52,089 nt of DNA from a virus. Taxonomy: Duplodnaviria; Heunggongvirae; Uroviricota; Caudoviricetes. Within the stretch, counting starts at the first letter, position 1. Every line of letters starts with the position of its first letter. Below the pieces are notes generated by a model. The model was not told the origin of the DNA. It saw only the letters and a list, made by a program, of their open reading frames with translations, and searched no databases. This document shows positions 32,824 to 51,588 of the stretch, one piece after another. The stretch covers positions 1-52,089 of IMG/VR virus record IMGVR_UViG_3300041407_000207, one strand, 5' to 3'. The position numbers and the translations under genes are program-made.

Positions 32824-33657
32824 ATGCCCAATATTTATTTGGAAAAGATTGCCCTCACTATTGAGGACACTCGTGCTGCTCGTAAATCCGGAGATGCTGC
32901 CGAAAGGAAAGTCCGGTTGAAAGGTGCAGGTATCGGGGCAGCCGTAGGCGGAGTCACCGGTGGTGGCCTTGCATACCATTTCGGTAAAAAGATGATCAAA
33001 GATCCTATCTTCGGACAAGGACTTAGATCTACGGGATTATCCAACAGAAAATTGCAGGCCGCAGTAGCAGGTGCCGGTGTTTTGACAGGTGCGCTCTTCG
33101 GGGCTGCTTCTGGGGATGAACATTCTTACGGCGCTTCTCGTAAGAAAAAAGTAGATGCATATCATGCTCGTATCAATAAGGCTCTTACAAAATCTGCTGC
33201 TGTAACTAAAACTCAAGTTGAAGCTAGAGTTAATCGAAACGATGCTCTTAGAGATGTTTCGAGAGTTGGCGGATTTGTGGCGGGTACGGCAGGAGTAGGC
33301 GGTCTTCACCTACATAAAGCCATGAAGAATGGGGGCGGTTACGCAGCGACGAAAGACGCTATGAGAAACGCGTATCATCGTCGTAAATCAAATCCTGAAA
33401 AGAAAATTGATAAAGGTTCGTTTCTAACAAAGTTAGAAGATATCAAACCTTCGAGAAGCGTTGCTAAACATATCGACCGAAGCGGTATCGCCCGTAAAGT
33501 AGGTAATTCGTTTGGTAGCTCGCTGTCCGGTAAAGGATTGGCAGGTGTCGCCGCAGGAGCACTCCTTGGAAGCTACGCAGCATCAAAAAGCATGACTGCC
33601 AAAAATGATAAGTCAGACGTCAATTACTACTCTAAGCTGAGCAAGAAAAATGGATAA
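32824..33657 (+). CDS. basic glycine-zipper protein with NxYLEKxA leader (putative virion internal protein)
   Basis: MPNIYLEKIA; four Gly-rich hydrophobic segments. Confidence 0.6.
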   Translation: MPNIYLEKIALTIEDTRAARKSGDAAERKVRLKGAGIGAAVGGVTGGGLAYHFGKKMIKDPIFGQGLRSTGLSNRKLQAAVAGAGVLTGALFGAASGDEHSYGASRKKKVDAYHARINKALTKSAAVTKTQVEARVNRNDALRDVSRVGGFVAGTAGVGGLHLHKAMKNGGGYAATKDAMRNAYHRRKSNPEKKIDKGSFLTKLEDIKPSRSVAKHIDRSGIARKVGNSFGSSLSGKGLAGVAAGALLGSYAASKSMTAKNDKSDVNYYSKLSKKNG

Positions 33658-34018
33658 CATCTACTTAGAAAAAATTGCTCAGGATGCTCCTGTAAAGAAG
33701 CAGTCTACATTTCTCCATGCGCTTGGTACTGAGGGCACTGCCATCGGTGTTGGCCTCGGAATGAAAGCAGTTGGATCTAGGTTTGGTGGTGGAAAGTTCG
33801 GTGCTGCTTTGGCTAAATCCAAAGTAGGTAAGTTTGCTTCTAAAGCTTTCTGGGGACAGAAAGATGTTGGCGGCAGAGTTCTTACTGGAGAACTTGGTGA
33901 ATACACCGGCAGTGTTGCTGGGGTATACGGAGCTCTAAAGTTAAAAGAACATTCCGATAACAAAAAAGCGAAGAACGCTTACTTACAAAAAGCCGCGAGC
34001 TTAGTAAAAGCGCATTAA
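33650..34018 (+). CDS. basic glycine-zipper protein with NxYLxKxA motif at both ends
   Basis: MDNIYLEKIA...KNAYLQKAA. Confidence 0.6.
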   Translation: MDNIYLEKIAQDAPVKKQSTFLHALGTEGTAIGVGLGMKAVGSRFGGGKFGAALAKSKVGKFASKAFWGQKDVGGRVLTGELGEYTGSVAGVYGALKLKEHSDNKKAKNAYLQKAASLVKAH

Positions 34019-34021
34019 AAT
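34016..34021 (+). promoter_or_regulatory. class L hexamer TAAAAT overlapping a stop codon
   Basis: Upstream of the 34048-35957 capsid unit. Confidence 0.4.
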
Positions 34022-34047
34022 ACATGCATAGCAGAGGACACACCCAG

Positions 34048-34569
34048 ATGTCTGAAATTTCCCAACTGCTTCGCGATGAAGCGGGGCATATTACCGAACT
34101 ACTTGAAAAGCAGGCAGAGCAGGTTTCTCTCTTTGAGGAAACTAAGTTGTCCGCTGCACAAGCTTTGGTAGAAGCTGGGGTTAGCCCGGAAGAATCGTTG
34201 ATTATGGTTAAACAAGCTGAAGAGCTTCAAGGCCTATCTCCCCTACCGGTGTCTGTAGAACCTCAGTTCGTAGTAACAGTGCTAGAGAAGTCTGCTTCTT
34301 ATATTGAGGAGCTAGAAGGAACTATCGCTGATCTGCAAGCTAAAATCAAAAATAGCGAAGGGTTCAGTAAGGCAGCTGCCGTCTCTGGTCCTGATGCAGA
34401 AAGTCTTCAAAAATCTGGTTTCAGCAATGATGAAGTTAAGATCATGGCGGAACACGGAATTTTGGAAAAGGTGGCCCACCTCACAGGTACTCCCTGGGAA
34501 CCGGGTTACAGCTCAGGCCGCCCAACTGCTGAATCTCTGGACCCGATTGCGCGCTTCTGTTTAGGCTAA
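34048..34569 (+). CDS. putative scaffold/prohead protein
   Basis: Start reassigned to ATG at 34048 behind AGAGGA; five K-x-A motifs; coiled coil; just upstream of decoration and MCP genes. Confidence 0.6.
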   Translation: MSEISQLLRDEAGHITELLEKQAEQVSLFEETKLSAAQALVEAGVSPEESLIMVKQAEELQGLSPLPVSVEPQFVVTVLEKSASYIEELEGTIADLQAKIKNSEGFSKAAAVSGPDAESLQKSGFSNDEVKIMAEHGILEKVAHLTGTPWEPGYSSGRPTAESLDPIARFCLG

Positions 34570-34645
34570 TTTCGGTACCAGCACAATCTTAGTTAGGGGA
34601 GTTAACCTCTAACATAGTAAAAACTCTTTAGGAGAGAACACTAGT

Positions 34646-35059
34646 ATGAAGATGGAATTTGCTTTCGAAGTAATTCGCGGATACCCACAAGATGGCTCCC
34701 TGGATCGCGTCGAACCCATCAAAGCTGGCAGCACCCTTAAAAACGGTGACGTCGTAGCTAAACAAACTGACGGTACCGTTGACCTGGCTGGCGCTACTGC
34801 GACCAACAAAGTTGGTGTCGTCGTCCAAGGTAATGGCGACAGCTCTTCTGCTGCCGCTTCTGGTAAAGCTGTCGTTCTGTGGGGCAACTACATTGCTCGC
34901 GTAGCTTCGACTGCCTACACTGCAGGTGCGTATGTACCGGGCTCCAATGTAACTGGTAAGAGCGGTAAATTTGCTCTTGACGCAGGTACTGATCCGGTTA
35001 TCGGCTTTGTACTGGAAATCGTTGCCGAAGATAACTCACTGATTATCTTGGTTAAATAA
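34646..35059 (+). CDS. capsid decoration/cement protein
   Basis: 137 aa beta-rich (LKNGDVVAKQTDG...GVVVQG...YVPGSNVTGKSGKF...PVIGFVL), immediately upstream of MCP; AGGAG RBS. Confidence 0.7.
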   Translation: MKMEFAFEVIRGYPQDGSLDRVEPIKAGSTLKNGDVVAKQTDGTVDLAGATATNKVGVVVQGNGDSSSAAASGKAVVLWGNYIARVASTAYTAGAYVPGSNVTGKSGKFALDAGTDPVIGFVLEIVAEDNSLIILVK

Positions 35060-35069
35060 GGAGCCGAGC

Positions 35070-35957
35070 ATGTACGGTACTGAAACTACTAACGTTCAAT
35101 TCCTGAACCAGTCCTTCATCGACAAAGTCGACCAAGGTATGGAGAAGGAAGCTTCTGTAGCTGCTAGCGCATTCGTGCGTCAAAAGCTACGTGAAGACGG
35201 TTTTACCCGCAAGATCATGGAACCGCAAATGGTTACCGCCGCTGATCTGGATCGTCAACTTACCGACGAGCCTGCAATCATCGTCGAGAAAGAACCTGAT
35301 TCGGTAGCTGCTTCGATGAGCTTCCGTGGTCGTTCGGAACTTCGTTACTTCAAAGGCGAGCGTTACGCTGTCAACTTCCACAAGATTGAGAGCAAAGAGT
35401 TCAAGAAGTCGAAATTCGAACTGGCTACCTACCGCACCGATATCCGCACCGTTCTGCAAGAGAACAGTGTTAAAGATATCCAGAAGGTAGAAGACACCAG
35501 TTTCTACGCCAACATCTTGGGTATGGCTACTGCTGCAAGCAACGTCTACACCATTGCTGGCGGATTCAACATGCCTAACTTCCAAGCAGGTATCAAAAAA
35601 CTGCTTGCTAAGCAACTGCCTGTTGGTAAGATCCTGATGACTCAGGAAATGTATGCTGACTTCCTGGCTCAGCCTGCTACCCAAATTGGTTCGGACGCAG
35701 CTTCGTCGCTGTTCATGGGCCAAACTGGTATCGCAACTCCGTACGGCAACCAGATCATCGTTACCAACAAGAACGATATCCTGCCGAACAACCAGATGAT
35801 CGTCTTCGCACCTACCCAGTATCTGGGTCAGATGTACATCCTCCAGGATGCGATGGTCTACCTGAAGACTGAAGCTGACCTGCTGTCCTTCAAGACTTAC
35901 GAGTCTGTAGGCATCGGTTTCGGCAACGTCAACGGCGCTGCTGTCATCAACTTCTAA
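35070..35957 (+). CDS. major capsid protein (HK97 fold expected)
   Basis: Position after protease/scaffold/decoration, strong codon bias, AGGAG RBS, strong terminator; N-terminal 28 aa end in MEKEA. Confidence 0.8.
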   Translation: MYGTETTNVQFLNQSFIDKVDQGMEKEASVAASAFVRQKLREDGFTRKIMEPQMVTAADLDRQLTDEPAIIVEKEPDSVAASMSFRGRSELRYFKGERYAVNFHKIESKEFKKSKFELATYRTDIRTVLQENSVKDIQKVEDTSFYANILGMATAASNVYTIAGGFNMPNFQAGIKKLLAKQLPVGKILMTQEMYADFLAQPATQIGSDAASSLFMGQTGIATPYGNQIIVTNKNDILPNNQMIVFAPTQYLGQMYILQDAMVYLKTEADLLSFKTYESVGIGFGNVNGAAVINF

Positions 35958-35991
35958 TTCTAGCCGTCTAGGCAAGATTGAAGATTCAGAG

Positions 35992-36017
35992 AAAGCCCCT
36001 CGTTTGGGGCTTTTTTT
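35992..36017 (+). terminator. intrinsic terminator
   Basis: AAAGCCCC-TCGTTT-GGGGCTTT followed by TTTT. Confidence 0.8.
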
Positions 36018-36037
36018 GTAGCTATAGTTTGTCGGGG

Positions 36038-36043
36038 TAAAAT
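36038..36043 (+). promoter_or_regulatory. class L hexamer TAAAAT, 6 nt before ATG
   Basis: TAAAAT-agaacc-ATG, no RBS. Confidence 0.6.
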
Positions 36044-36049
36044 AGAACC

Positions 36050-36694
36050 ATGTCAAATCCCTATCTCGAAAAAGCTGCTTCACTGTATGACTTCTGGAAT
36101 GACTTTTCCGGCAAGGAACATAACGAGTTAAAGGCTCGGAAGCATCACTTTGAAAAAGCAATTGCCAACAACGACACCGTTGAGGGCTTGGCTAGTCGTA
36201 TTAAGCAGACCGGTGATAGGACCTTTAGAGCTCGAGGAAGAGTAGGCCTGGCCTCTCTGGGACTTGCAGCTGCGGGAATCATCGGTACTAAGAAGTACGC
36301 AGATCATCAAGACCGCATAGCTACGGAAAATCTTCGTAATCTTTTCTTGCTTCAGAAGCAAGCAGGGATTGCAGGAAAGACAGTTTCCGGGTTAAAGTCA
36401 GTGGGTTCAGGTGCTTTGAATATTTTGAACACTGCTCATGGTGGGAAAGTAAAACAGTTCGGCGTGGATACTTTCGGAAAGCATACCCCTAACTTTAAGA
36501 AGTTTGTGGGTTCCAATAAAACAGAACAGAAGAAATTCGTAAAAGGTCCTGAACTGGATAAGCTTAAGAAACTTCACCGCCAACAACGTTTGTCCCAAGT
36601 GGGTGTATACGGATCTGCGGGCAGTCTTACTCTCGCCTACCGTAGCAATAAGAACAAGCAGAACGCGGCTTACCAGCCTCAGTATTACTACTAA
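36050..36694 (+). CDS. basic protein with NPYLEKAA leader (putative virion internal protein)
   Basis: MSNPYLEKAAS; internal LLQKQAG; Lys-rich. Confidence 0.6.
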   Translation: MSNPYLEKAASLYDFWNDFSGKEHNELKARKHHFEKAIANNDTVEGLASRIKQTGDRTFRARGRVGLASLGLAAAGIIGTKKYADHQDRIATENLRNLFLLQKQAGIAGKTVSGLKSVGSGALNILNTAHGGKVKQFGVDTFGKHTPNFKKFVGSNKTEQKKFVKGPELDKLKKLHRQQRLSQVGVYGSAGSLTLAYRSNKNKQNAAYQPQYYY

Positions 36695-36710
36695 TTGAAC
36701 GAGGAAGACA

Positions 36711-37067
36711 ATGTACATTCTTAACCTTACTAACACTACTCTGTCCGTAGGCCAATTCGCCGATATCGCTCCAGGCAAATACCTGAAAGCAGACAAGTAT
36801 ATTTTGGAATCTGCAGAGACCGCATACGCAGTTCGAGCCAAGTGGGCTTCCCTGCATGACTCTCCTCCAAAAGAAATCGTTTTCGCAGGCGAGACTGTCA
36901 ACTTTGAAAAGGCAGCCATCGAAGGCACCACTGAGTTCCCTAAGGATGAACCTAAAGCAGTTCTGCAAGAAGAACCTGCTGCGGTAGAAAAGGAAGAACC
37001 GGCTAAAGAAGTGGAAGCCGTAGAAGAAGTTGAAGCACCTGCTAAAGCCACTCGCAAAGCTAAATAA
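36711..37067 (+). CDS. hypothetical virion protein with Glu/Ala/Pro-rich tail
   Basis: GAGGA RBS; lies between head and neck genes. Confidence 0.65.
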   Translation: MYILNLTNTTLSVGQFADIAPGKYLKADKYILESAETAYAVRAKWASLHDSPPKEIVFAGETVNFEKAAIEGTTEFPKDEPKAVLQEEPAAVEKEEPAKEVEAVEEVEAPAKATRKAK

Positions 37068-37083
37068 ACCTGAAGGATAAGAG

Positions 37084-37530
37084 ATGTCCACTCCTGTTAT
37101 AACTCCAGATGAAGTCCGAGAGTTCATCGCTGATTACGTCGAAAATAATCATCTATTAGATGGCGTTGAGTTCAGCGACACCCGTATTTCGCTGGCTACG
37201 GAGTTGGCCATCTCTGAATTCAACTTTCTACCCCCGATTGGCGGAGTCTCTCTCAACACGTTCATGCGTGCTGGTAAGTCTATTCTGATGTCGGGGATTC
37301 TATGGAAGCTATTTGAAGGTCAGATGGCTCTATTGGCACGTAACACGATGAGCTATAACGATGGCGGCATCAGTCTTCCTATCGAAGAACGTATGTCGTT
37401 GTACCAAGGTATGGCTCAACAGTTCCAACAAGCATTCCTATCTTCTGCTGGCAGAGCTAAACAGTATCTGAATATCGAATCTGGTTGGGGTGAAGTGGGT
37501 AGCGACCAAGCTAATTTCCCAGTTTGGTGA
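37084..37530 (+). CDS. putative head-tail adaptor (neck) protein
   Basis: 148 aa helical protein at the neck position; NTMSYNDGGIS pattern like head-completion proteins. Confidence 0.55.
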   Translation: MSTPVITPDEVREFIADYVENNHLLDGVEFSDTRISLATELAISEFNFLPPIGGVSLNTFMRAGKSILMSGILWKLFEGQMALLARNTMSYNDGGISLPIEERMSLYQGMAQQFQQAFLSSAGRAKQYLNIESGWGEVGSDQANFPVW

Positions 37531-37534
37531 GTTA

Positions 37535-38380
37535 ATGAGACTACGTCCTGGAGTCTTCTACTCGTCCTTTTTCTATAAAGGCGACGTACAAGCACAAATA
37601 GAAAATCCATATTTTCAAATAGAGATACTCCCTCACTGGTTCGACCGGGCACTTGTTAAATGGTCTATCCCTGCTGATTGGGGCGACTGCTCATTTAACG
37701 TCTATAAGTCTGAGTCAGAAACCGGGCCCTTTACGAAGATGAACTCCACTCCAATTCTGGGGTTGATCTTTAACGATCTCGAGCATCGTAAATTCTCAAA
37801 GTACCACCAAGACTACTACATAGTCGAAGCTATCCTACACGATAAAAACGATGCCCTCCTTCGGTCAGCCCCATACTCCTGGGAACGTCAGCAACGTAGA
37901 TGGGTAGAATTACGCAGCATTGAAATTCAGAGACGTTTCTGGTTGATGCTTCGTAAGTTCGTAGGTGTAGAAACTCAGGTATTCAAACGTAAGACTTTTG
38001 GAAAGAGATGCGGTACTTGCTGGGATCCCAGGAACCACAAAGTTACTAACGACAAATGCCCTGAATGTATGGGGATAGGTTGGTCGGGTGGCTATATGGA
38101 ACCCTACTCAACTTTGATTCAATACGACGCCACTCCGAACAACACAGAACTCTCGGTGTACGGACGGAACGAACCAAACGCCATTGTCGGTATGACAATC
38201 TCATTTCCTAACTTGGATGATTGGGACATTGTCTACCGAGTCAAAGACGGCAGAATGTACCGGGTAGATAAGGTCCTCACCACTGAGCTTCTCACGAAAC
38301 CTGTTAGTCAGAGATTTCAACTAATTGAATTGCCTAAGAATTACGCAGAATATAAATTAGTGGAGAAATATAATCTATGA
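37535..38380 (+). CDS. putative head-closure/neck protein with Zn finger
   Basis: Start reassigned to ATG at 37535; RCGTCWD...KCPECMGIGWSGGY; beta-rich C-terminus with DIVYRV..GRMYRV. Confidence 0.55.
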   Translation: MRLRPGVFYSSFFYKGDVQAQIENPYFQIEILPHWFDRALVKWSIPADWGDCSFNVYKSESETGPFTKMNSTPILGLIFNDLEHRKFSKYHQDYYIVEAILHDKNDALLRSAPYSWERQQRRWVELRSIEIQRRFWLMLRKFVGVETQVFKRKTFGKRCGTCWDPRNHKVTNDKCPECMGIGWSGGYMEPYSTLIQYDATPNNTELSVYGRNEPNAIVGMTISFPNLDDWDIVYRVKDGRMYRVDKVLTTELLTKPVSQRFQLIELPKNYAEYKLVEKYNL

Positions 38381-38961
38381 GCAAAATTACCCCTATCCAA
38401 GTGGGTCGTCTTATTCTAGAGCCAATTCGTTATTTTTTCGCTAATCGTAACCCTGATGGTGAAATGTGGTGGGATGCCGATCCCAAGAAGACTAAGATTG
38501 ATATATCTATGGTGAATGACGCCACTAAGGAACTACCAGATCACGGCATGCAGATTCTGGTTGACCGAGGAGCATTCCGAGTAAGTAAGACCGGCATAAG
38601 TGACAATATGATGGACGGTAAGCCGATGAGTGAAACTAAAGGTTTACAGGATAGAAGAAGTTTACTTTTTGCCCAAGGTTCCGCTACGGTGATAATAAAA
38701 GCCCGGAGTGAAGGGACTGTAGAAATTCTTACCGATATGGTTTTCCACATTCTTCAATGGTCAAGGCCACATATCGCAGACATACAAGGCTTTAAAGACT
38801 TCGGCCTACCAATGGACGTAAGTTCTCCAAGACCTGTAAAACCAGACGTGGAATGTTTTGAGGTGCAGATATCTGTACCTTATATGATTGAAGACGCCTG
38901 GCAATCAAACAATGACGCTCTAAAATTACGTGATCTATTCCTGAGTATTGCTAACCGGTAA
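38377..38961 (+). CDS. putative tail terminator / tail completion protein
   Basis: Immediately upstream of sheath; size and alpha/beta pattern fit. Confidence 0.5.
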   Translation: MSKITPIQVGRLILEPIRYFFANRNPDGEMWWDADPKKTKIDISMVNDATKELPDHGMQILVDRGAFRVSKTGISDNMMDGKPMSETKGLQDRRSLLFAQGSATVIIKARSEGTVEILTDMVFHILQWSRPHIADIQGFKDFGLPMDVSSPRPVKPDVECFEVQISVPYMIEDAWQSNNDALKLRDLFLSIANR

Positions 38962-38968
38962 TCCCGGC

Positions 38969-38974
38969 TAAAAT
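38969..38974 (+). promoter_or_regulatory. class L hexamer (GC)TAAAAT
   Basis: Upstream of the sheath gene. Confidence 0.55.
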
Positions 38975-39039
38975 AAACTTGAATTCACAAGGGCCTGCTG
39001 GTGCAGGTCTATAAGTTAACCCGAAGGAGTCTTAGCCTG

Positions 39040-41649
39040 ATGGCTTACGTAATCCCCTCCGTTCTCGTATACCAACAGCTAGAGAACAGCGGTGGCGTAC
39101 TCAATTCGACCCCGGACCTGCATGCGTGCATCATTGGCCCTTGCTATACCGAAGTCATTTATGAGTCAGGATCGACCGAAGCTCTGGTGAAAACCGCAGC
39201 TAAATCGGCAATCCGTACCACCGGCACCGCCGTAGTTGGCAGCAAAGATGTAACCGTCGCTTCTATCTCCGGGTTCTTCTCTGGCGATAGCATTGTACTG
39301 GAAGGTGCTGCTGCATCTGGTGGCCCTCTGGCTGCAACCGTAGTATCTGTAGTAGGTACAGTTATTACTTTGGACGTTGCTGTAGTAACCGCCGTTACCG
39401 ATGCTTCGATCTCTAAAAAAGGTCTTCTAGTAAACGCTTCTGTTCCTAACATTTACGCTCTTCCGAACGTTAAGCCTGGACAAAAAGTAGTTGCTGCTGA
39501 CACTCGTATTTACCTAAACAACGTTTTGGTATCTACCGTAGCTACTAAAGCTGAAGGCCATTCTCAGGGCAACGTCCTGTCGATCACTTCTTTCGCCACT
39601 ACTGGTGCAGCTACCGCTGCCTCTTCTGTAGTTACCGTAGCTAGTGCTTCGGGTCTGGTAGACGGAGATTTCATCACCGTTGCAGGCGCAGGTCTCGCAG
39701 GTGCGAACCTCTCCGCAAGAATCGTAGATATCACCGGCAATGTCCTCACTCTGGACCGTGCAGTTGGTACTACCGTGAGCACCGCAGCTGTCACCAAGAA
39801 TAACCCGATGCTCGTAAATGAGCTGAGCAATACCTATAACGCAGAAGCCGGTGACACCGTAAAGGTTGCTTACACCAATACCTCTTCTCAGTCTCTGGTG
39901 TTCTCGTCCCTGGTAAAAGAAGTTGTTTCTTCTGCCGGTGGAATCACTCGTCTGGTTCTGACCGATAACCTGCCAGCAGATGTGAGTGCTAAAACCACTG
40001 CTACTACCACTGCTGCAAGCAGCGACGTAACTGTTGCAAGCTCAACCGGCATTACCGTAAACGGTCGTGTTCGTGTAGTAGGTACTGGCTTCGACATCTA
40101 CACTACCGTAACTGGTATTGCAAGTTTGGTAGTTACTCTCGCAGACGCAATTCCAGCTACTCAGTCAGGTGCTCAGTTCTACGTTCTGAACTCTTCTACT
40201 GTATTTGTAGAGAAGGGATACAACGATCAACTGCTTCCACTGAATAAGCCAATCAGTTCAGGTACTAACTACAACCTGGATAACATCGGTGATGAATACG
40301 AATTCACCATCAATGCTGGTTCGGAACTGATCTACGGCCCAATCGTTTCTGCAGATGTTCACGTAGGTTACCGTGCTCTTCGTACTGACCTATCTGGATC
40401 TGTTCTGGAAATTGCAGACATCAACGATCTGGCAGGTGTGCTGGGTGATCCGACTGAGAAGAACCCGCTGTCTCTGGGTGTTCAACTTGCTCTGGCCAAC
40501 ACCACCACTTCGATTCGTGCGATTGCTATTCCTTCGGATGACCTGATGGGTTATCAGATTGCACTGGAACTGGCTGAGAACATTCGTCTGTACGCAATGA
40601 CCCCGCTTACTCAGGATATTGGCATCATCAATACTCTGAAAGCACACTGCGATCAGCTGTCTACTCCAGTAGAAGCTTCGTGGCGTGTTGCACTGGTCAA
40701 CGTTAAGACTCCGGATGAGCAATCTGTTGGTCAATACTCTGCTACGTTCTTGAACGCAGCTACCGGTATTACCATCGAGAACATCGCTGGTAAGTTTGTT
40801 CTGAACGCTGCTAACGCTACTTTCTTGAGCGATGCACTGGTTCCTGGCGACATCATCAAGGTGGTCTCTGCTACTCCAGGTACTTCGATCAACGATTACG
40901 TAGTTCAAGAAGTAGTCAGCAACCAACAAGTAGTCATTGACGCTACCGAAGCAGCTATCAACGTCTCGTACTGGGCTTCTCGCAAGCTCACCAAGACTCA
41001 ACAAGCTGACTGGGTTTCGAAGACTTCTGCACAGTTCAACGATAAACGCGTTATCAATATCCAGCCGGATACTTGTGGCGTGAGCATCGGTGGAGTTACT
41101 AAGTACCTGCCTGGCTACTACTTGGCTTGTGCGATTGCAGGTATGACTGCTGGCTTCCCAGTTCAACAAGGCTTTACCAACATCGGCCTAGCCGGTATCA
41201 CTGACCTGAAGCGGAGTAACTTCTACTTCACCCGTGCTCAGATGAACCACATGGCTGAGACCGGTACCTTCTTGATCGTTCAAGATGTTCAGGGTGGAAC
41301 TCCTTACGTTCGTCACGCGATGACCACTGATATCTCCGTACTGGAATATCGTGAATACCTCGTAGTGAAAAACTGGGACTACCTGAGCTACTACTTCTAC
41401 GACAAGTTGAAGCCATTCATCGGTACTTGGAACATCACTACCGATACTCTGAACAACATTCGCCAGACCGTCGTAGCTTCCGCAGAACTGCTGAAGTCTA
41501 AGAAACTGCCGAAGATTGGCCCTCCACTGGTTGACTACAACCTGGCGATCATTGGTCAGAATGCGGTAAACAAGGATAACATCGATATCAATCTGAAAAT
41601 TGCAGTCGTGTATCCGAACAACTACACCAACTTGTACCTGATCATCTGA
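39040..41649 (+). CDS. contractile tail sheath protein with inserted beta-rich repeats
   Basis: C-terminal sheath domain (PGYYLACAIAG...QQGFTN...FTRAQMN.MAETG...RHAMTTD...REYLVVKNWDY); start reassigned to ATG at 39040 behind AAGGAG. Confidence 0.88.
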   Translation: MAYVIPSVLVYQQLENSGGVLNSTPDLHACIIGPCYTEVIYESGSTEALVKTAAKSAIRTTGTAVVGSKDVTVASISGFFSGDSIVLEGAAASGGPLAATVVSVVGTVITLDVAVVTAVTDASISKKGLLVNASVPNIYALPNVKPGQKVVAADTRIYLNNVLVSTVATKAEGHSQGNVLSITSFATTGAATAASSVVTVASASGLVDGDFITVAGAGLAGANLSARIVDITGNVLTLDRAVGTTVSTAAVTKNNPMLVNELSNTYNAEAGDTVKVAYTNTSSQSLVFSSLVKEVVSSAGGITRLVLTDNLPADVSAKTTATTTAASSDVTVASSTGITVNGRVRVVGTGFDIYTTVTGIASLVVTLADAIPATQSGAQFYVLNSSTVFVEKGYNDQLLPLNKPISSGTNYNLDNIGDEYEFTINAGSELIYGPIVSADVHVGYRALRTDLSGSVLEIADINDLAGVLGDPTEKNPLSLGVQLALANTTTSIRAIAIPSDDLMGYQIALELAENIRLYAMTPLTQDIGIINTLKAHCDQLSTPVEASWRVALVNVKTPDEQSVGQYSATFLNAATGITIENIAGKFVLNAANATFLSDALVPGDIIKVVSATPGTSINDYVVQEVVSNQQVVIDATEAAINVSYWASRKLTKTQQADWVSKTSAQFNDKRVINIQPDTCGVSIGGVTKYLPGYYLACAIAGMTAGFPVQQGFTNIGLAGITDLKRSNFYFTRAQMNHMAETGTFLIVQDVQGGTPYVRHAMTTDISVLEYREYLVVKNWDYLSYYFYDKLKPFIGTWNITTDTLNNIRQTVVASAELLKSKKLPKIGPPLVDYNLAIIGQNAVNKDNIDINLKIAVVYPNNYTNLYLII

Positions 41650-41825
41650 TGGGTAACAAGTATTTGGAAAAGGTGGCTTCGATACTGAAGCTGCCTGGAC
41701 CAAAGGCGAACGCTTTAGGTGAGGTTGTCCGATCTGCTAAAGCGTTTTCTGGTAAAAAGAACTTCGGATTTCACTCAATGGCGAAGACGCCGATGATTGA
41801 ACGAATCAAAGCTTCACTCCATTAA
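41649..41825 (+). CDS. 58 aa basic peptide with NKYLEKVA leader (not in ORF track)
   Basis: Own translation MGNKYLEKVASILKLPGPKANALGEVVRSAKAFSGKKNFGFHSMAKTPMIERIKASLH*; ATG overlaps the sheath TGA. Confidence 0.7.
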   Translation: MGNKYLEKVASILKLPGPKANALGEVVRSAKAFSGKKNFGFHSMAKTPMIERIKASLH

Positions 41826-42894: not shown

Positions 42895-42900
42895 TCATCA

Positions 42901-43761
42901 ATGACTACTACCAATCCCTATCTTGAGAAATCTGCAAGCCTGTTAGCTGGGGCTGCGTTGACTCACCTCGTTCAAAACGTAGCTACAAACCAGGCCTTGA
43001 AAAACAAGAAAGTTGCCAAGTATCTGGCCAACTCTCTGACTCAGGGATACCACGGCGTAGTAGATACTTCTATAAAAGCTAAGGCCACTCGTGCCGCTGC
43101 ATCCGTAGTAGTACCAGACGTAGCCGCTGCTCATAAAGCAGCTCACCAAGCAGGGGCTAGTCTCAAAGATATTCTCAGTGGTGCTACGAATCGACAGAGG
43201 GCTGCGTCGAGGATGGCGGTAGAGGGTAAATTCGAGCAGCTAAAAAAATACAAAATGCATGAAGATCCTGTGGTTAAGAAGGTTCAGGATTTGGCTGCAA
43301 AACATTTACCTACGTTGAATGATATTTCCAAAGGCGCCTCTAAGTCTTTGAGTGATCTTTGGAAAGACAAGACTCACCCATTGCTCAGCAATATTGCGAA
43401 GAACATTGGTCGAGGTGAAATACCTAAAGGTCCTCAGTTCAAAGTTGGGAATATGAACCAAACCCTACCGACCCTAAGTTCTATAGCCATTGCACCTATC
43501 GAGCCTAGTGCTGCTGCCATTGATGGGATCAAAGCACTCGCAGGTAGCTCTGCAGTGCAGTCAACTCAGACAGGTAAGAAAGCCGTAGATTTCTTGAGAA
43601 AGACTTTCATCGACGACCCTTTGAAGAAAGGGATGAAGGCTACTGCTGAAGTTAAAGGATTAAAACATGAGGCTTCGAAATTCCTCCTCAATCCTACCTC
43701 TGCACATCTAAAAAGAACAGCGGCTGCAGTATCGCAAGCCGCCAAGTCTTCTCAGGTATGA
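42901..43761 (+). CDS. basic Ala/Lys-rich protein with NPYLEKSA leader (putative virion internal protein)
   Basis: MTTTNPYLEKSASL. Confidence 0.6.
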   Translation: MTTTNPYLEKSASLLAGAALTHLVQNVATNQALKNKKVAKYLANSLTQGYHGVVDTSIKAKATRAAASVVVPDVAAAHKAAHQAGASLKDILSGATNRQRAASRMAVEGKFEQLKKYKMHEDPVVKKVQDLAAKHLPTLNDISKGASKSLSDLWKDKTHPLLSNIAKNIGRGEIPKGPQFKVGNMNQTLPTLSSIAIAPIEPSAAAIDGIKALAGSSAVQSTQTGKKAVDFLRKTFIDDPLKKGMKATAEVKGLKHEASKFLLNPTSAHLKRTAAAVSQAAKSSQV

Positions 43762-43955: not shown

Positions 43956-43961
43956 TACGCC

Positions 43962-44920: not shown

Positions 44921-44927
44921 TTATACC
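44921..44927 (-). promoter_or_regulatory. class E promoter motif GGTATAAC
   Basis: TTATACC, back-to-back with the class L variant at 44955. Confidence 0.65.
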
Positions 44928-44954
44928 AAAAATCACAACCCATCTTTACGACGT

Positions 44955-44960
44955 TAAACT
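44955..44960 (+). promoter_or_regulatory. class L variant (CGT)TAAACT, 6 nt before ATG
   Basis: TAAACT-gagatt-ATG. Confidence 0.5.
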
Positions 44961-44966
44961 GAGATT

Positions 44967-46049: not shown

Positions 46050-46077
46050 AGAGGGCATCATGCCCTCAACCAATCCT

Positions 46078-46482
46078 TTAAGAAACTTTTGCTACTAGCT
46101 CCTTAGAACTGCGCTGGAATACCTCGTTCACAAACCTTTCAAAGCGTTTCACAGCACTGCGAGTAGTCATTTCGTCAGAGCCAGAGAGGGCATACCGCAC
46201 GGTTGCAAGCATTGCTTGAGTCCCAAAATACTCTCCAGCCAACCCAATCTCTTCTGGAGATAAAGCCGTCAATAACGATATTTCATGTTCTAGAGACAGC
46301 TTATCCATCTCCTCCATGAACTGCGCCTTGCTCCTTATGATGCCCTGCCTACGGGCGATAATTTCCAAAGAAATCTTAGCGGTCAACTCCTCGACACCCC
46401 CTTTCTTTGAAAACAGTCGAGTGAAATGAATCTCCTCAACAGCCCCATTGATATAGCGTCTGTTCCAAGTGATAGTTTGCAT
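46078..46482 (-). CDS. hypothetical protein
   Basis: Own class E motif at 46516, AGAGG RBS. Confidence 0.7.
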   Translation of the reverse strand: MQTITWNRRYINGAVEEIHFTRLFSKKGGVEELTAKISLEIIARRQGIIRSKAQFMEEMDKLSLEHEISLLTALSPEEIGLAGEYFGTQAMLATVRYALSGSDEMTTRSAVKRFERFVNEVFQRSSKELVAKVS

Positions 46483-46515
46483 ATTGGTGAACCTCTATGT
46501 GTTTCCCCATAATAC

Positions 46516-46522
46516 TTATACC
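46516..46522 (-). promoter_or_regulatory. class E promoter motif GGTATAAG
   Basis: TTATACC, intergenic. Confidence 0.7.
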
Positions 46523-46536
46523 AGTTTCGGAAGGCT

Positions 46537-46563
46537 AAAAAGAGGCCCCGGCAAAAGCCGGGA
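46537..46563 (-). terminator. intrinsic terminator of the RT operon
   Basis: Minus strand CCCGGC-TTTT-GCCGGG then GCCTCTTTTT. Confidence 0.65.
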
Positions 46564-46726
46564 AGTCCTCATAAGTGCGGGTGGTTGATGCCCATGGCAA
46601 TTACATAGCGCTTACCCAATCTGTCTTGCCTCACAGTCAGGTCTGGCCATAACGAGAATACAACCTTGAGAAGCCCGTAACACGTCATATTCATTCTCAT
46701 CATTTGAACGACGTATTAAATTTGAA

Positions 46727-47830
46727 TCACTCAGGTTGGTGTTGGTAGGGAGTTGATCGACAGATCTCTTCCCATTCCGTGCATGCCCTTTGGAACGACG
46801 AAATAAGCCTCGACGAACCTGCAGGGTTTAGCTGTCCAAACCAATTGAGTTTCCCACGAATTCTCAGCATGAATTCGTTAGGGGTAAGGTTGGTCTTGGC
46901 CGCTTCTGCTTCCAAACCATTCTTACCTGCGTTGTGAACGATTGCCCTTAGGCGGAGACGCTCCTCTTTTAAGAGGTTCACCTTTTCGTTCACTACCGTA
47001 CCACAGACATACAATCGACTGTGTCGGGTACCTTTCTTCATCACTTTCGTCTTTCCACGGTTAACTCGAAAACCGTACCGTGTAAGGACTCCGGACACAT
47101 AGTCGATAGCCTCTTTGGAATCAAAAGACTCCTTGGAGGATATCGTTATGTCATCTGCGTAGATGGTGAGGGCAAGCCCTCGATCATCGCAGTACTTCTT
47201 TACTTCAGGCCCGAAGGTCCTAGAGGCAACAATGTTGCTGATCTTTGGACTGGTCAATCCACCCTGCGGAACATTAGGACCTAAGGTCATAAGCTCCGAG
47301 AGTGTTCGGGCTGGAGACTCTCCAAAGCCAACGCTCAGCATCAAATCTTTCAGAACGTGTTGCTTAATGCTCGGAAAGTAATTCTCGATGTCTAAGCTTA
47401 CAATTTGCAAACTACCTTCATGCACCCTTGCCATGACCGGAATGGATTTGTCCCGTTCAAAAGCATAAATGTAATCCGGAATCTCGAAGTACTTCTCTAG
47501 GACCTCCTTCAAGATTCGGAACTGCAACAGACGCATTAGATCGCTTGGATTGTAAACGACGCGGTGTCCGCCCTTCTTAGGAATCTTCAGAAGCTTGTAG
47601 TGCTCGGATTTGTTCTTGGAAGCATACGTCAGCGTCGACGAGCTCTTGACTCTCAGCAGCTTCGAGAGCTCTCGGTTCGATTGAGGCATTGAGCTCAGAC
47701 TCAGTGACGTCGGGGAGTCCAAGGTGCTCAAGGTTCCCTCCAATGAGGAGAGTTGCTTGTTCAATGCTGAGTCGTCGAACGGGCCGAGCGTCGATTCGAC
47801 GGCGGTAGAGATCTCGAGGATAGACTGCAT
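46727..47830 (-). CDS. retron-like reverse transcriptase
   Basis: Y..LKIPKKGGHR...P, region X MARVH (NAxxH-like), LDIENYFPSI, PQGGLTSP.ISN, YADD, NRGKTK, region Y VCG (VTG-like), GKLNW..QLNP thumb. Start either ATG 47830 (GGAG RBS) or ATG 47689 (where RT homology begins). Confidence 0.9.
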   Translation of the reverse strand: MQSILEISTAVESTLGPFDDSALNKQLSSLEGTLSTLDSPTSLSLSSMPQSNRELSKLLRVKSSSTLTYASKNKSEHYKLLKIPKKGGHRVVYNPSDLMRLLQFRILKEVLEKYFEIPDYIYAFERDKSIPVMARVHEGSLQIVSLDIENYFPSIKQHVLKDLMLSVGFGESPARTLSELMTLGPNVPQGGLTSPKISNIVASRTFGPEVKKYCDDRGLALTIYADDITISSKESFDSKEAIDYVSGVLTRYGFRVNRGKTKVMKKGTRHSRLYVCGTVVNEKVNLLKEERLRLRAIVHNAGKNGLEAEAAKTNLTPNEFMLRIRGKLNWFGQLNPAGSSRLISSFQRACTEWEEICRSTPYQHQPE

Positions 47831-48059
47831 AAAAACCACTCCGAACAGCTCCGGTATTTTTAAGGTAAATAACGCCTACGCGAATTACCCCCACTTGCTT
47901 CTCCAGCGGAATGAACCCCGCATTGTTTGGAGTTCCCAGCACGACTGCGTATTTAACGTAATCTTGCTCCTCGGGGCGGAAACACATAAGGCCCTTGTGA
48001 GGCCTCAGGCATTTAAGGACATCCCGGAATGAGGCTTCAGTACTTTGTCGAATTGCCAT
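47577..48059 (-). CDS. RT-associated hypothetical protein (160 aa) overlapping the RT 5' end
   Basis: AGGAGG RBS; beta-rich N-terminal half; overlaps RT in another frame. Confidence 0.7.
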   Translation of the reverse strand: MAIRQSTEASFRDVLKCLRPHKGLMCFRPEEQDYVKYAVVLGTPNNAGFIPLEKQVGVIRVGVIYLKNTGAVRSGFYAVYPRDLYRRRIDARPVRRLSIEQATLLIGGNLEHLGLPDVTESELNASIEPRALEAAESQELVDADVCFQEQIRALQASEDS

Positions 48060-48080
48060 TAAAGAGCCTCCTGAGCTCGT

Positions 48081-48233
48081 TTAGAAAAGCCAGCTCTTAA
48101 CTGTTTTAAGCGTACGCACTACGAGGGTCTTGATGGGCCCGCAGCGGTTGTATAACTCAATAGCCAACCGTTGTACGAGACGAAGAAGTTCCTCAGTGCT
48201 CATTGCTGAAAAGTCGAAAGTGCTTGCGTTCAT
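48081..48233 (-). CDS. 50 aa hypothetical protein, first gene of the RT operon (not in ORF track)
   Basis: Own translation MNASTFDFSAMSTEELLRLVQRLAIELYNRCGPIKTLVVRTLKTVKSWLF*; AGGA RBS. Confidence 0.6.
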   Translation of the reverse strand: MNASTFDFSAMSTEELLRLVQRLAIELYNRCGPIKTLVVRTLKTVKSWLF

Positions 48234-48344
48234 ATTGGTTATTTCCTGAAATTAGTTATTCGATATGTAGCGTTTGATTTGCAACATCCTTGAGTGGGCT
48301 TCTCGTTGTAAAACAAACTGTGTAAGAAATCTCTTACACTACTG

Positions 48345-48351
48345 TTATACC
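48345..48351 (-). promoter_or_regulatory. class E promoter motif GGTATAAC (RT operon)
   Basis: TTATACC, intergenic. Confidence 0.65.
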
Positions 48352-48406
48352 AAAAATGCAGGTTTCCTTGAGTAGCTAAAAAAGGCCGTCCATGGCCCTT
48401 CCAACC

Positions 48407-48763
48407 TTATTTCCGTGTATCTGGGTACTTCTTCCGAAGAGCATTTAGATTTTCCAAACTTGGATCTCGGAGAAATTCGTCGAGACATTTGCAATCGACA
48501 CCCTGCTCTTTGAGAAACCCGCCAATATCTCTTTTCCACAAAGCAATCTTCTCAGCTTCTTTCTCCATAAGAGTTTTCAGAAGAGCAGACGCCTCGACAG
48601 AGACTTGATCCAATCGTTGTCGAGAGGCATTTTGTGCAGCAGTGATTTTTGAAATAACATCGTTAATTTCAGGGGGTACCGGTGACTCCCTGGGTTCACT
48701 ACGGAACAACCCTATCAGGTACAAGTACCCTTTATAGGTCATTCGGGACAGATCAGATATCAT
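48407..48763 (-). CDS. hypothetical helical protein
   Basis: ORF downstream of the class E motif at 48797; exact start uncertain. Confidence 0.6.
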   Translation of the reverse strand: MISDLSRMTYKGYLYLIGLFRSEPRESPVPPEINDVISKITAAQNASRQRLDQVSVEASALLKTLMEKEAEKIALWKRDIGGFLKEQGVDCKCLDEFLRDPSLENLNALRKKYPDTRK

Positions 48764-48796
48764 GCGTAAGCTCCTATGCGTTCTTATCTACAATCC

Positions 48797-48803
48797 TTAT
48801 ACC
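48797..48803 (-). promoter_or_regulatory. class E promoter motif GGTATAAG
   Basis: TTATACC, intergenic. Confidence 0.65.
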
Positions 48804-48839
48804 AATAGAACGTAAAAAGAGGCACAAGGCCTCAGTGGT

Positions 48840-49136
48840 TTACTCAGTAGATCTCGTTACTTTCTTGAGTCCACTTTTTCTATTTCGCAGTTCCATTATT
48901 TGAACTGCAATTCGTTGCTGCTGAACTGCACCTTTTACGGTAGCCAACCGATCAAGCAGTTCATTGATTCCGCCGTAGTAGGCATTTACAGACTCGAGCT
49001 CCGCAGTCAACGCTTGTACTTTGATTTCAAGTTGTTGAATATGATGGTCTTTACTCTCTGACACTTTCTCAACCATCGTTCTGGCTTCACGAAGTTCGTT
49101 GACAGTATCTTGCATGGACGCACTAACCATAATCAT
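48840..49136 (-). CDS. coiled-coil hypothetical protein
   Basis: AGGAG RBS; heptad pattern. Confidence 0.7.
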   Translation of the reverse strand: MIMVSASMQDTVNELREARTMVEKVSESKDHHIQQLEIKVQALTAELESVNAYYGGINELLDRLATVKGAVQQQRIAVQIMELRNRKSGLKKVTRSTE

Positions 49137-49165
49137 CTCCTGAGCGTGGTTTTACATCATACTTC

Positions 49166-49172
49166 TTATACC
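49166..49172 (-). promoter_or_regulatory. class E promoter motif GGTATAAG
   Basis: TTATACC, back-to-back with the class L site at 49207. Confidence 0.65.
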
Positions 49173-49206
49173 CAAACGGCAAGTCTGAGATGGACGGGGC
49201 TACCGT

Positions 49207-49212
49207 TAAAAT
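49207..49212 (+). promoter_or_regulatory. class L hexamer (CGT)TAAAAT, 6 nt before ATG
   Basis: TAAAAT-actcag-ATG, no RBS. Confidence 0.6.
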
Positions 49213-49218
49213 ACTCAG

Positions 49219-50649
49219 ATGAGCAAACCTACCCAAATTCTCTTTGTCCGTCAGCGGCATGACGCTAAGCGAGCCGGATTACATAATGACTATCGCGTAG
49301 TGATTGGCGAGAAGGCTTTTTCGTGGGCATCTCGTAAAGATTTTCCGGAAGTAGGTAAGCCTACCATTCTCTGGGAGCAGCCTATCCACCATGCCGCATA
49401 TCTGAATAACCCCGACATTACTATTCCGGAAGGGCAGTACGGTGCTGGTACTCAAGTAATTGATTACGCTCAGAAAGGCAACGCCATAGTTAAAAACGAT
49501 GCTTACCACCTAGAGTTAAACAACGGTGATAGGTTCTTAATAAAGAAGGCCCCCGATTCGTACGGCGAGAAGGCTTGGCTTTTCCTAAGGAAGAAGAAAG
49601 TGGAAGATAAGAAAAACCCGTATCTTGAGAAAGTTGCTGCTCTGGGCAGTTCAGACATGGCCGCAGCTCGCAGCCACATCAATAAGAAACGTGAAGAAAG
49701 TGGCAAATCCGAGATTGGATTTCACGATTTCAAAGAACAATTCGAAGACCGTAGGGGTGTAAGTCGTAGAGTAGTTGGTACTATAGGCTTGGCGAACGCA
49801 GGAGCTTTGCTCAACCGATATAATCCTGCAGCAGGAGCCTTGGTCGGAGGAGTTGCTGGGTACTACCTAGGTAAATCTTTCGACAATAAAAATGCTCGTA
49901 AGAACATGATCAAAGAAGCCTCCGAGGATAAGCGTACTAAGGCCACTGCAGCTAAAGAAATTGCAGTAGGTGCGTACGGTCTAAATCATGTTTCGAAAGC
50001 CCCAAGTAAGCTCCTGGGCTATCACAATATGTACCACGGCACTTCCAAAGAGAACGCGAAGTCTATCCTGAAGAACGGCCTGAATAAATCTAAAGGCGGT
50101 AGTCGTGGGGCTAAAGTGTCTATCGGTGGAGAAGATTCTCTTAATGAATTTGTAAATACCGCTAAAAAACATGTCTATATGACTAAGAACAAATTTATAG
50201 GAAGAACCTTCGCAGGCGATAGTGCTAAGCACATTAATACTCACGGGGTAAACAGTGCCAAGGGCACCATCGAGACTCTGAAAGATGGATTTAAAAATGG
50301 CAAGGTGCTAAAGGCACGGGTGTCTCACGGTACTTGGGAGAAAGGCTTCAAGATGGATCCGGACTCCTTCCCTCTGCATATGCGGATGTTTACTGAGGAG
50401 AGCAAATTGAAGCCTATCGCGGCACGCTCTAAGCACAACATAAGCTCAAAGTCTTTTGTTGGCGGTAAGGATGCTCACGGTATTAAAGCCTTCGCCACCA
50501 AGAAAAACCTTCGTCGCTACTACTCCACTGCCAGCGGTAAAGCTCGCGGTAAACTAGGAGCATTCCAGCTAGCTGCCGGTACTGCTCTCGCTGCGGGTGC
50601 TGCGGTACATAACAAAAACAGTGGCGGCGTACTGTCGAAAGGTAAGTAA
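49219..50649 (+). CDS. fusion: LigD-type DNA 3'-phosphoesterase domain, glycine-zipper segment, ADP-ribosyltransferase-like (YHGT) domain
   Basis: QRHDAKRAGLHNDYR, SWA, HHAAY, IPEGQYGAG (PE); NPYLEKVA and MIKEA linkers; YHGTSKENAKSILKNGL...VYMT...FA...VLKARV (ART-like). Confidence 0.78.
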   Translation: MSKPTQILFVRQRHDAKRAGLHNDYRVVIGEKAFSWASRKDFPEVGKPTILWEQPIHHAAYLNNPDITIPEGQYGAGTQVIDYAQKGNAIVKNDAYHLELNNGDRFLIKKAPDSYGEKAWLFLRKKKVEDKKNPYLEKVAALGSSDMAAARSHINKKREESGKSEIGFHDFKEQFEDRRGVSRRVVGTIGLANAGALLNRYNPAAGALVGGVAGYYLGKSFDNKNARKNMIKEASEDKRTKATAAKEIAVGAYGLNHVSKAPSKLLGYHNMYHGTSKENAKSILKNGLNKSKGGSRGAKVSIGGEDSLNEFVNTAKKHVYMTKNKFIGRTFAGDSAKHINTHGVNSAKGTIETLKDGFKNGKVLKARVSHGTWEKGFKMDPDSFPLHMRMFTEESKLKPIAARSKHNISSKSFVGGKDAHGIKAFATKKNLRRYYSTASGKARGKLGAFQLAAGTALAAGAAVHNKNSGGVLSKGK

Positions 50650-50679
50650 GACGATGAACCCTAGAGGAACCAAGGTATA

Positions 50680-51588
50680 ATGAACGCTTATCTTATTAAG
50701 GTAGCCTCTATGTTTTCCCGTGCTAAATATCATGACGATATGGAAAAGATTAGGAACGCTGAGGAGAGAGTTACCTCGTTGAAATATGACGGGGCTAACT
50801 ACTTTCTTAAGTACGACTCTAATGGCGTTCCTACTTTTACATCTCGTAGACTTTCTGTGAAAGGAGAACCTATTGAAAAAGTTGACCGTGTTCCTCATCT
50901 GGCTAAGGTCATTCCTTCTCAAGCAGGTAAAGTCTATAACGTTGAGCTTATTCATACTGGTCATGATCCTCATACTTTTGAGAGTCACTCTCGTGTCTCA
51001 GGTCTACTCAACGCTCTCCCCGAACGCTCAACCAGAGAACAAAACGTCGACGGTCCTATTCGTGCCGTAGTCTTCGATGTGATTCATCCTCCGATTAATA
51101 CCTTTAAGGAGAAGATGGAACATATGAAGGGTCTGCAAGAGGACTTCGGGAATAAGGACCTTTTATTTCATCCACATTTCGAATTCGGGGAGGATGGGAT
51201 GGAGCGACTAATCCAGCAGTCTAAAGCCGAAGGGCGAGAGGGGGTTATCACCTTGGATTTGACCAAGGATGAGTCTAAGAACCCTAGGATTAAACTTGTA
51301 CATAAGAAGTACTACAACTTGAAGGTTCGTGGGATTCTACAAGAACGAGATATTCACGGGAATCTAAAGCCAAGTGCAGGGGCTCTCCAGTTAGAGGATG
51401 CGTCTGGTAATGACGTTGGTAAAGTTGGTACAGGATTCGACCGAGCAACTCGTATCGATATCCATGAAAATCCGAATGCCTGGCTTAACAAGATTATCCA
51501 GGTAAAGGCTATGAAGCCTACTGCTAGTAAAAAATTACGTCAGCCTGTCTACAACGGGGATGCTGACGGAGACGTGGACACAGTCTAA
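50680..51588 (+). CDS. ATP-dependent DNA ligase with NAYLIKVA leader
   Basis: Motif I KYDG, FTSRR, III VELI, IIIa VFDVI, IV EGVI, V IKLVHK, OB domain GKVGTGF, VI LRQPVY. Confidence 0.9.
   Translation: MNAYLIKVASMFSRAKYHDDMEKIRNAEERVTSLKYDGANYFLKYDSNGVPTFTSRRLSVKGEPIEKVDRVPHLAKVIPSQAGKVYNVELIHTGHDPHTFESHSRVSGLLNALPERSTREQNVDGPIRAVVFDVIHPPINTFKEKMEHMKGLQEDFGNKDLLFHPHFEFGEDGMERLIQQSKAEGREGVITLDLTKDESKNPRIKLVHKKYYNLKVRGILQERDIHGNLKPSAGALQLEDASGNDVGKVGTGFDRATRIDIHENPNAWLNKIIQVKAMKPTASKKLRQPVYNGDADGDVDTV

Follow-up and report, generated by a model that had tools for sequence, protein, structure and literature searches.

A short peptide with the consensus M-(x)-N-x-Y-L-E-K-x-A, carried by otherwise unrelated proteins of an uncultured phage (IMG/VR record IMGVR_UViG_3300041407_000207), is probably a capsid-targeting and cleavage tag. 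It would resemble the capsid-targeting sequence (CTS) of phage T4, but with another sequence and with a protease that cuts elsewhere than after Glu. The window analysed is a stretch of 52,089 nucleotides, the first 52 kb of a 116 kb record with a CheckV completeness estimate of 65%. An earlier note on this DNA had proposed a portable load-and-cleave tag that recruits diverse cargo, including enzymes, into the head. All computational tests fit that proposal: the core of the tag lies at protease, scaffold and capsid-protein sites, at least 75 protein clusters carry the tag, conservation has an edge after Ala, and the carriers are basic. From these patterns we infer packaging, cleavage with its scissile bond, and ejection. 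Beyond the earlier note, the tag was found to extend a general K-x-A code, a gene for a protease with a predicted gp21/assemblin fold lies 1.6 kb upstream of the first tagged gene, and full tags occur at extreme C-termini, suggesting a docking role beyond that of an N-terminal propeptide.

Copies and carriers of the tag

A six-frame regular-expression search of the window for N-x-Y-L-x-K-x-A found eight copies, all on the + strand and all inside open reading frames (ORFs). These are the eight that the earlier note had listed, with the same positions and sequences (Table 1). Six of the eight begin at residue 2-5 of their ORF, as the note had said in placing six near the N-terminus. The expected number is 0.024 from six-frame composition; over 200 triplet shuffles the average was 0.025 copies, and no shuffle had more than 1. 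No copy was found on the - strand or in bases 1-32000. The codons differ among the copies (AAT/AAC, TAT/TAC, TTG/TTA/CTC/CTT, GAA/GAG, AAA/AAG), and this use of synonymous codons shows selection on the peptide and not a DNA repeat. That the carriers are otherwise unrelated was borne out by an all-against-all BLASTP of the seven window carriers, in which alignment was limited to the 10-residue tag. The genome-wide search suggested in the note gave one further copy, the ninth, in the rest of the 116-kb record: NQYLTKIA at 110402, which with a TTG start gives MNQYLTKIA at the beginning of a SNF2-type helicase (110399-111871).

Pfam and PHROGs gave nothing for five of the seven window carriers. 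An isoelectric point (pI) of at least 9.7 was found for seven of the eight tagged proteins of the record, versus 14% of all genes. Several carriers have Gly/Ala-rich hydrophobic stretches.

The distribution of the tag was examined by scanning IMG/VR with a degenerate DNA pattern for M-x-N-x-Y-L-E-K-x-A. The scan gave 82 loci on about 60 contigs, many of them with multiple copies (loci outside the window's record are numbered with an L below). About 30 of the 82 loci encode a homolog of the window's capsid protein (58-94% identity) or protease (40-76%), and the tag-bearing loci are therefore taken as one clade. No member of the clade was found among the cultured phages searched. By capsid protein, the closest cultured phage is Salmonella phage Arash at 54% identity; three Vibrio phages follow at 50%, and Bacillus phage G is a more remote relative. 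A looser pattern found 215 copies in the tag-bearing loci, and in about nine of ten cases a start codon stands 1-3 residues before the copy.

Proteins with an N-terminal tag that were unique and at least 45 residues long were clustered with the tag removed, at a similarity cut-off of E < 1e-4. The 144 proteins fell into 75 clusters that have no mutual similarity once the tag is taken away. Pfam assigned cluster representatives to SNF2 helicase, DNA ligase, LigD 3'-phosphoesterase (LigD_N) and the PARP catalytic domain; most have no family. DNA ligase is tagged in at least five lineages, and its homologs in L008, L018, L047 and L064 begin with the tag. The tag is also carried by SNF2 helicases of further clade members (L030/L073). 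Relatives close enough to have a 94% identical capsid protein have kept the tags, with cargo genes that are partly different. The tag of the 33650 product is likewise retained in the close relatives L002 and L003 despite a differing sequence after it.

The logo of the tag is M-(x)-N-K-Y-L-E-K-I-A, which is near invariant, and conservation collapses at the position after Ala. The residue there is S, A or G in 54%, Glu in 18 of 151, and K and L also occur. Full tags were also found 3-6 residues from the C-terminus, in the 33650 product, which has a tag at both ends, and in relatives L012, L057 and L064, where similar copies lie 11-14 residues before the stop.

Tags also mark the junctions of multi-module proteins. 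In the 49219 product a LigD-type 3'-phosphoesterase domain (residues 12-81) precedes the internal tag; in relative L064 this N-terminal domain and the tag lead into another C-terminal module, which is shorter. A 659-residue protein of L030/L073 has one tag at its start and a second at residue 506, before a separate C-terminal module. These two cases, the module swap and the second tag, are the basis for the junction assignment. For residues ~260-420 of the 49219 product (nt 50020-50480), the nearest Atlas clusters are all of the ADP-ribosyltransferase type (PARP, Tox-ART-HYD1, Arr, DarT, exotoxin A), with scores of 0.75-0.82, which are below 0.9 and serve as a lead only. A Y-H-G-T motif is present in this module. 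By sequence the module may be a packaged ADP-ribosyltransferase similar to Alt of phage T4.

The consensus was also scanned over 596 Gb of bacterial and archaeal genomes. Six matches were found, a chance-level number; two lie deep in ordinary ORFs and for four there was no copy in an ORF of at least 40 residues. No head genes were found near the six. The consensus is thus essentially absent from these cellular genomes, which argues that the tag mimics no cellular signal. A full-text literature search for 'YLEKIA' returned unrelated papers only, and no paper describing the peptide was found. The long tag was not found in the structural region of Arash. One basic 151-residue protein of the cultured relative Vibrio phage D69 (L087 23211-23666) begins MDNVDTLLEKIAAK, a variant of the tag that lacks Asn-x-Tyr. 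In Bacillus phage G, gp38 (L088 16219-16734) has MKRLIKKAS at its start and gp17 a similar LKRLIKKSN; these may be a different N-terminal tag ending in the same K-x-A-S code.

The K-x-A core and the prohead protease

Underlying the tag is a shorter motif, hydrophobic-x-K-x-A, after which S, A or G usually comes and of which the tag is an extended form. Terminal tags keep the Asn and the Tyr, and the internal core sites are without both. Enrichment of the core was measured against 2000 shuffles in which residues were permuted within each protein, with the tagged genes left out of the head set. The head proteins have 17 strict core sites versus 1.26 expected (about 13-fold) and 35 loose sites versus 5.8 expected; none of the 2000 shuffles reached 17 or 35, respectively. 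In six tail proteins (the 882-residue sheath, the tube and four others) there was no strict site versus 0.36 expected, and two loose sites versus 2.5 expected. Over the whole record, core sites are about 15 times as dense in the head module.

Proteins with many sites are acidic (pI 4.2-4.9), and scaffolds are usually acidic. The two scaffold-like proteins encoded next to the protease consist of ~30-residue repeats, each of which opens with hydrophobic-x-K-x-A-A. The repeat has the form hydrophobic-x-K-E-A-A-x3-L-x3-G-x2-F-x2-A (31307-32785) and resembles a helix-extended-helix unit. Homologs of the 317-residue head-module protein in Arash (gp220) and in Vibrio phage D69 have nine core sites each. 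At the N-terminus of the capsid protein, the K-E-A of the core site is invariant in 20 homologs, including those of the cultured phages Arash and D69. Core sites recur at the same positions in these two phages in the protease, the scaffold-like proteins and the capsid-protein N-terminus. Judging from its position and distribution, hydrophobic-x-K-x-A would be the cleavage signal of the protease. Just past the window, away from the head module and beside ligase genes, an acidic 283-residue protein (52101-52952) has about nine K-x-A-S sites and may belong to the core or scaffold proteins too.

Over its first 220 residues the 29652-31232 product matches phrog_18299 'head maturation protease' (E 8.6e-9), and the catalytic domain spans about residues 35-215. 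K-x-A sites lie just outside both ends of this domain, and in an alignment of 16 homologs their residues K32, A34, L218, K220 and A222 do not vary. Bacillus phage G gp19 also has the second of these sites, the one after the domain; the paper on that phage says nothing on processing sites (PMC12484599). In an AlphaFold2 (AF2) model made with the 16 homologs, residues 35-207 are ordered and the predicted local distance difference test (pLDDT) value is 68.7. The best Foldseek matches were three chains of T4 gp21 (5jbl; probability 1.0, E 5e-4 to 2.5e-3, template modelling (TM) score 0.38/0.54, the 0.54 by target). Next came the proteases of pseudorabies virus (PrV), Kaposi's sarcoma-associated herpesvirus, human cytomegalovirus, herpes simplex virus 1 and Epstein-Barr virus. 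The model thus places the enzyme in the predicted fold shared by T4 gp21 and the herpes assemblins. A phmmer search of the protease against PDB sequences gave no match. H57, H99, S150 and H176 are invariant in the alignment of the 16 homologs and are candidate residues for a Ser-His-His catalytic triad.

The protease domain has a Cys-rich insert (residues 153-176, nt 30108-30179) in which C160, C163, C174 and H176 are invariant and C153 is nearly so among the 16 homologs. From its sequence the insert looks like a zinc site. To our knowledge no such site is known from T4 gp21 or the herpes proteases. Mycobacteriophage Catera, a distant relative by its protease, was dropped as a comparison; it has no clear K-x-A pattern. 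Complex prediction of protease residues 35-214 with the 58-residue tagged protein gave a score of 0.00, which is no verdict for or against binding.

Proposed mechanism and competing readings

In the proposed mechanism the C-terminal half of the tag (hydrophobic-x-K-x-A, then S/A/G) would be the recognition site of the phage's own prohead protease. The protease would cut at the flanks of its own domain, dice the acidic scaffold-like proteins and trim the N-terminus of the capsid protein. The conserved Asn and Tyr would turn the terminal version into a docking peptide that recruits unrelated, mostly basic proteins into the core of the assembling prohead. After assembly the protease would remove the tag, probably by cutting after the Ala, and the cargo would stay in the head and likely be delivered with the DNA. 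Such cargo would include DNA ligase, a LigD phosphoesterase fused to an ADP-ribosyltransferase-like module, SNF2 helicase and glycine-rich basic proteins. A conserved prohead-protease site on a protein would place that protein inside the prohead, because that is where the protease acts. The long form should do more than present a scissile bond, namely dock, because internal sites are without Asn and Tyr and full tags lie near C-termini. The chances seem even that this holds as a cargo code throughout the clade of uncultured phages of ~115-190 kb. An assemblin-fold protease would then read hydrophobic-x-K-x-A, and N-K-Y-L-E-K-I-A at an N-terminus, C-terminus or module junction would be the docking and release signal, with the substrate groove of the protease as a possible receptor. 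The signal would load an interchangeable arsenal for injection: DNA ligase, 3'-phosphoesterase, ADP-ribosyltransferase-like enzyme, SNF2 helicase and membrane-active glycine-zipper proteins.

The closest parallel in design is T4. Its CTS is a 10-residue N-terminal peptide, MKTYQEFIAE, which is found on diverse basic internal proteins and is sufficient to package foreign proteins (PMC9026906, PMC8442874, PMC3012670). The gp21 protease removes the CTS at a motif at which it also processes scaffold and capsid proteins, and in Alt both termini are trimmed (PMC9026906). Internal proteins of T4 are highly basic (PMC8442874). As on IPI, IPII, IPIII and Alt, the tag is a peptide of about 10 residues at the N-terminus of unrelated, mostly basic proteins, and it ends in a motif that the head protease would use on scaffold and capsid protein as well, the cut sites here being putative. 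Cargo sets turn over between close relatives in both systems, and both have enzymes as cargo, Alt being an ADP-ribosyltransferase. Like Alt, the 33650 product with its two tags might be cut at each of its ends. The T4 peptide has Y-Q-E-F-I-A where the tag has Y-L-E-K-I-A, so that the spacing Y-x-E-x-I-A is common to both, a resemblance and not evidence of homology. The differences are considerable. The gp21 consensus is (L/I)-x-E, whereas the tag ends in K-x-A; the protease is a distant fold relative of gp21 (15-16% identity) with a Cys-rich insert and a long C-terminal extension. Unlike T4, this phage has a 295-residue capsid protein and a split multisubunit RNA polymerase, whose Arash counterparts were detected in virions. 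In addition, its full tags also occur at C-termini and internal module junctions.

Herpesvirus assemblin has a release (R) and a maturational (M) site, and the R site lies between assemblin and the scaffold portion of one polypeptide; in PrV it is YLQA-T226, and VQA-S is also found (PMC4498786). The phage protease is like assemblin in its predicted fold and in having, at the corresponding position (about residue 222-226) after the protease domain, a site of the self-cleavage type ending in Ala that is followed by a scaffold-like C-terminal part. In both, Ala is at the presumed P1 and Ser or Thr comes next. They differ in that the herpes consensus has a hydrophobic residue two before the Ala, whereas the code here has an invariant Lys. 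We know of no herpesvirus in which such a site serves as a portable tag for cargo. The cargo-loading peptides of encapsulins attach directly to the shell protein and stay uncleaved, without a protease or scaffold. They are likewise short terminal peptides, at either terminus, that load diverse enzymes into an HK97-fold shell, but their sequences are unrelated to the tag. Giant phages of the phiKZ type such as SPN3US have S/A/G-x-E processing and ejection proteins (PMC5694885, PMC7411985). These phages too are large, with many head-internal proteins processed by a gp21-like protease. They differ in cleavage motif and capsid protein family, and no short common N-terminal tag of this kind is known to have been described in them.

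Several points weigh against a tag that is both docked and cleaved. Virion proteomes from the wider clade come only from Salmonella phage Arash and Bacillus phage G, and Arash is without the long tag. For Arash, 116 virion proteins including ribonucleotide reductases and kinases are given by coverage only, with no peptide list (PMC10585845); the preparation evidently held non-structural proteins too. The scaffold-like gp223 of Arash was recovered with 100% coverage (PMC10585845), which implies uncleaved K-x-A-S bonds in that preparation. This proteome neither confirms nor excludes cutting. The residue after Ala is unrestricted (E, K and L occur), which is loose for the P1' of a scissile bond. 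C-terminal tags would lose only a stub if cut, so that cleavage may not be their point. In the scaffold-like proteins K-x-A-A stands at the head of each helical repeat, where its role could be structural and not that of a cut site. The protease model is of only moderate confidence, as its pLDDT and TM values indicate, and gives a predicted fold only.

A second reading is a tag that docks and is not cut, which is unlikely, though less so than the others below. A short amphipathic helix with Y, L, I/V and A on one face would bind a component of the head core, and the K-x-A of the scaffold would mark the starts of structural repeats. Full tags at extreme C-termini, in one protein together with an N-terminal tag, the motif at the opening of the ~30-residue repeat unit, the variable residue after Ala and the full coverage of Arash gp223 all suit such a helix. 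However, the motif is invariant at both boundaries of the protease domain, at the herpes release-site position, and it lies near the capsid N-terminus, which are classic processing positions, and the sharp edge of conservation at Ala suits a cut site. The converse, a cleavage site without targeting, would have the proteins reach the prohead in some other way, with the motif serving only to let the protease trim or activate them. A core common to the tag and the presumed protease sites agrees with this, but trimming 9-10 residues from 75 unrelated families would have no evident purpose unless the peptide itself acts. Moreover, terminal copies conserve an Asn and a Tyr that internal sites are without, and no other common feature able to target these proteins was found; there is little likelihood that cleavage is the whole function.

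Still harder to sustain is a function outside the virion, as a membrane- or host-factor-binding peptide on late proteins or as a mimic of a host processing signal of the L27/Prp kind. Staphylococcus phage 80alpha uses an L27/Prp N-terminal extension, and several carriers here have Gly/Ala-rich, glycine-zipper-like hydrophobic stretches. Against this, the consensus is essentially absent from the 596 Gb of cellular genomes, which leaves no host signal to be mimicked, and the tag core is tied specifically to head-assembly proteins. Chance, a DNA-level repeat or the remnants of one fast-evolving paralog family is a negligible prospect. The low-complexity nature of some carriers speaks for it and nothing further, whereas eight copies stand versus 0.02 expected. 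Repeat and paralogy were rejected on the variable codons, the BLASTP alignment of the tag alone and the 75 clusters, which include unrelated enzyme folds (ligase, SNF2 helicase, LigD phosphoesterase, PARP-like domain).

If the tag does target and release cargo, the injected proteins of a large clade of uncultured phages could be listed from sequence only. Such proteins would act in the cell before any other phage protein, and would include candidate anti-defence and DNA-repair enzymes. Conserved tagging of the DNA ligase, seen in five lineages, suggests an end repair delivered by the virion; this would be new biology. The capsid-targeting principle of T4 would have arisen or persisted outside the T4-like phages with a different peptide and a different protease specificity, one that ends in Ala and is closer to that of the herpesvirus proteases. 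The tag would also be a second short peptide to try for loading foreign proteins into phage heads.

Genomic setting

Table 1. Positions of the tags, core sites and other features in the window
Feature	Position	Strand	Remarks
RNA polymerase beta pieces	12241-16739		
HNH homing endonuclease gene	19535-20860		between RNA polymerase pieces
RNA polymerase beta-prime piece	22855-24675		with Rpb1 domain 5
Head-module protein, 317 residues	28134-29087	+	5 core sites
Prohead protease with C-terminal extension (predicted), 526 residues	29652-31232	+	directly upstream of scaffold-like genes, 3.8 kb upstream of major capsid protein gene; 3-4 core sites
Protease K-x-A site, residues 30-35	29739-29756	+	G-L-V-K-A-A
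Protease K-x-A site, residues 218-223	30303-30320	+	SSILQKVAS, right after domain
Protease K-x-A site, residues 381-386			
Acidic scaffold-like protein, 349 residues	31307-32356	+	pI 4.4; 11 core sites
Acidic scaffold-like protein, 137 residues	32372-32785	+	pI 4.2; 3 core sites
Tag MPNIYLEKIA (NIYLEKIA at 32830), N-terminal	32824-32853	+	277-residue protein 32824-33657, basic (pI 10.4), Gly/Ala-rich; weak Pfam Gly-zipper match
Tag MDNIYLEKIA (NIYLEKIA at 33656), N-terminal	33650-33679	+	122-residue basic protein 33650-34018
NAYLQKAA, C-terminal copy	33974-33997	+	same 122-residue protein 33650-34018; 14 residues before stop; six residues, then stop
Acidic protein, 181 residues	34024-34569	+	three L-E-K-x-A sites
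Major capsid protein, HK97-type, 295 residues	35070-35957	+	phrog_2522, E 4.7e-14
Capsid-protein core site, residues 24-29	35139-35156	+	GMEKEAS
Tag MSNPYLEKAA (NPYLEKAA at 36056), N-terminal	36050-36079	+	214-residue basic protein 36050-36694, just downstream of capsid gene
Contractile-tail sheath, 882 residues	39001-41649		
Tag MGNKYLEKVA (NKYLEKVA at 41655), N-terminal	41649-41678	+	58-residue basic protein 41649-41825, between sheath and tube genes
Tag MTTTNPYLEKSA (NPYLEKSA at 42913), N-terminal	42901-42936	+	286-residue basic protein 42901-43761
Reverse transcriptase	46727-47839	-	Pfam RVT_1, E 9.8e-18; between baseplate and ligase genes
NPYLEKVA, internal	49615-49638	+	residue 133 of 476-residue product of 49219-50649; module junction
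Tag MNAYLIKVA (NAYLIKVA at 50683), N-terminal	50680-50706	+	ATP-dependent DNA ligase 50680-51588
ATP-dependent DNA ligase	50680-51588	+	

With 20 kb as the query, megablast matched none of 50,697 phage records. The split multisubunit RNA polymerase genes (10223-16739 and 22855-24675) are directly upstream of the head module. In the relative Arash, the RNA polymerase subunits are the most abundant proteins of the virion preparation. The RNA polymerase genes of the window are without a K-x-A tag. No template/variable repeat pair was found within 5.8 kb of the reverse transcriptase gene, and the enzyme is for this reason probably not part of a diversity-generating retroelement. A GC-rich hairpin followed by a T-run (32785-32823), similar to a terminator, abuts the start of the first tagged gene and is kept in the close relatives L002 and L003.

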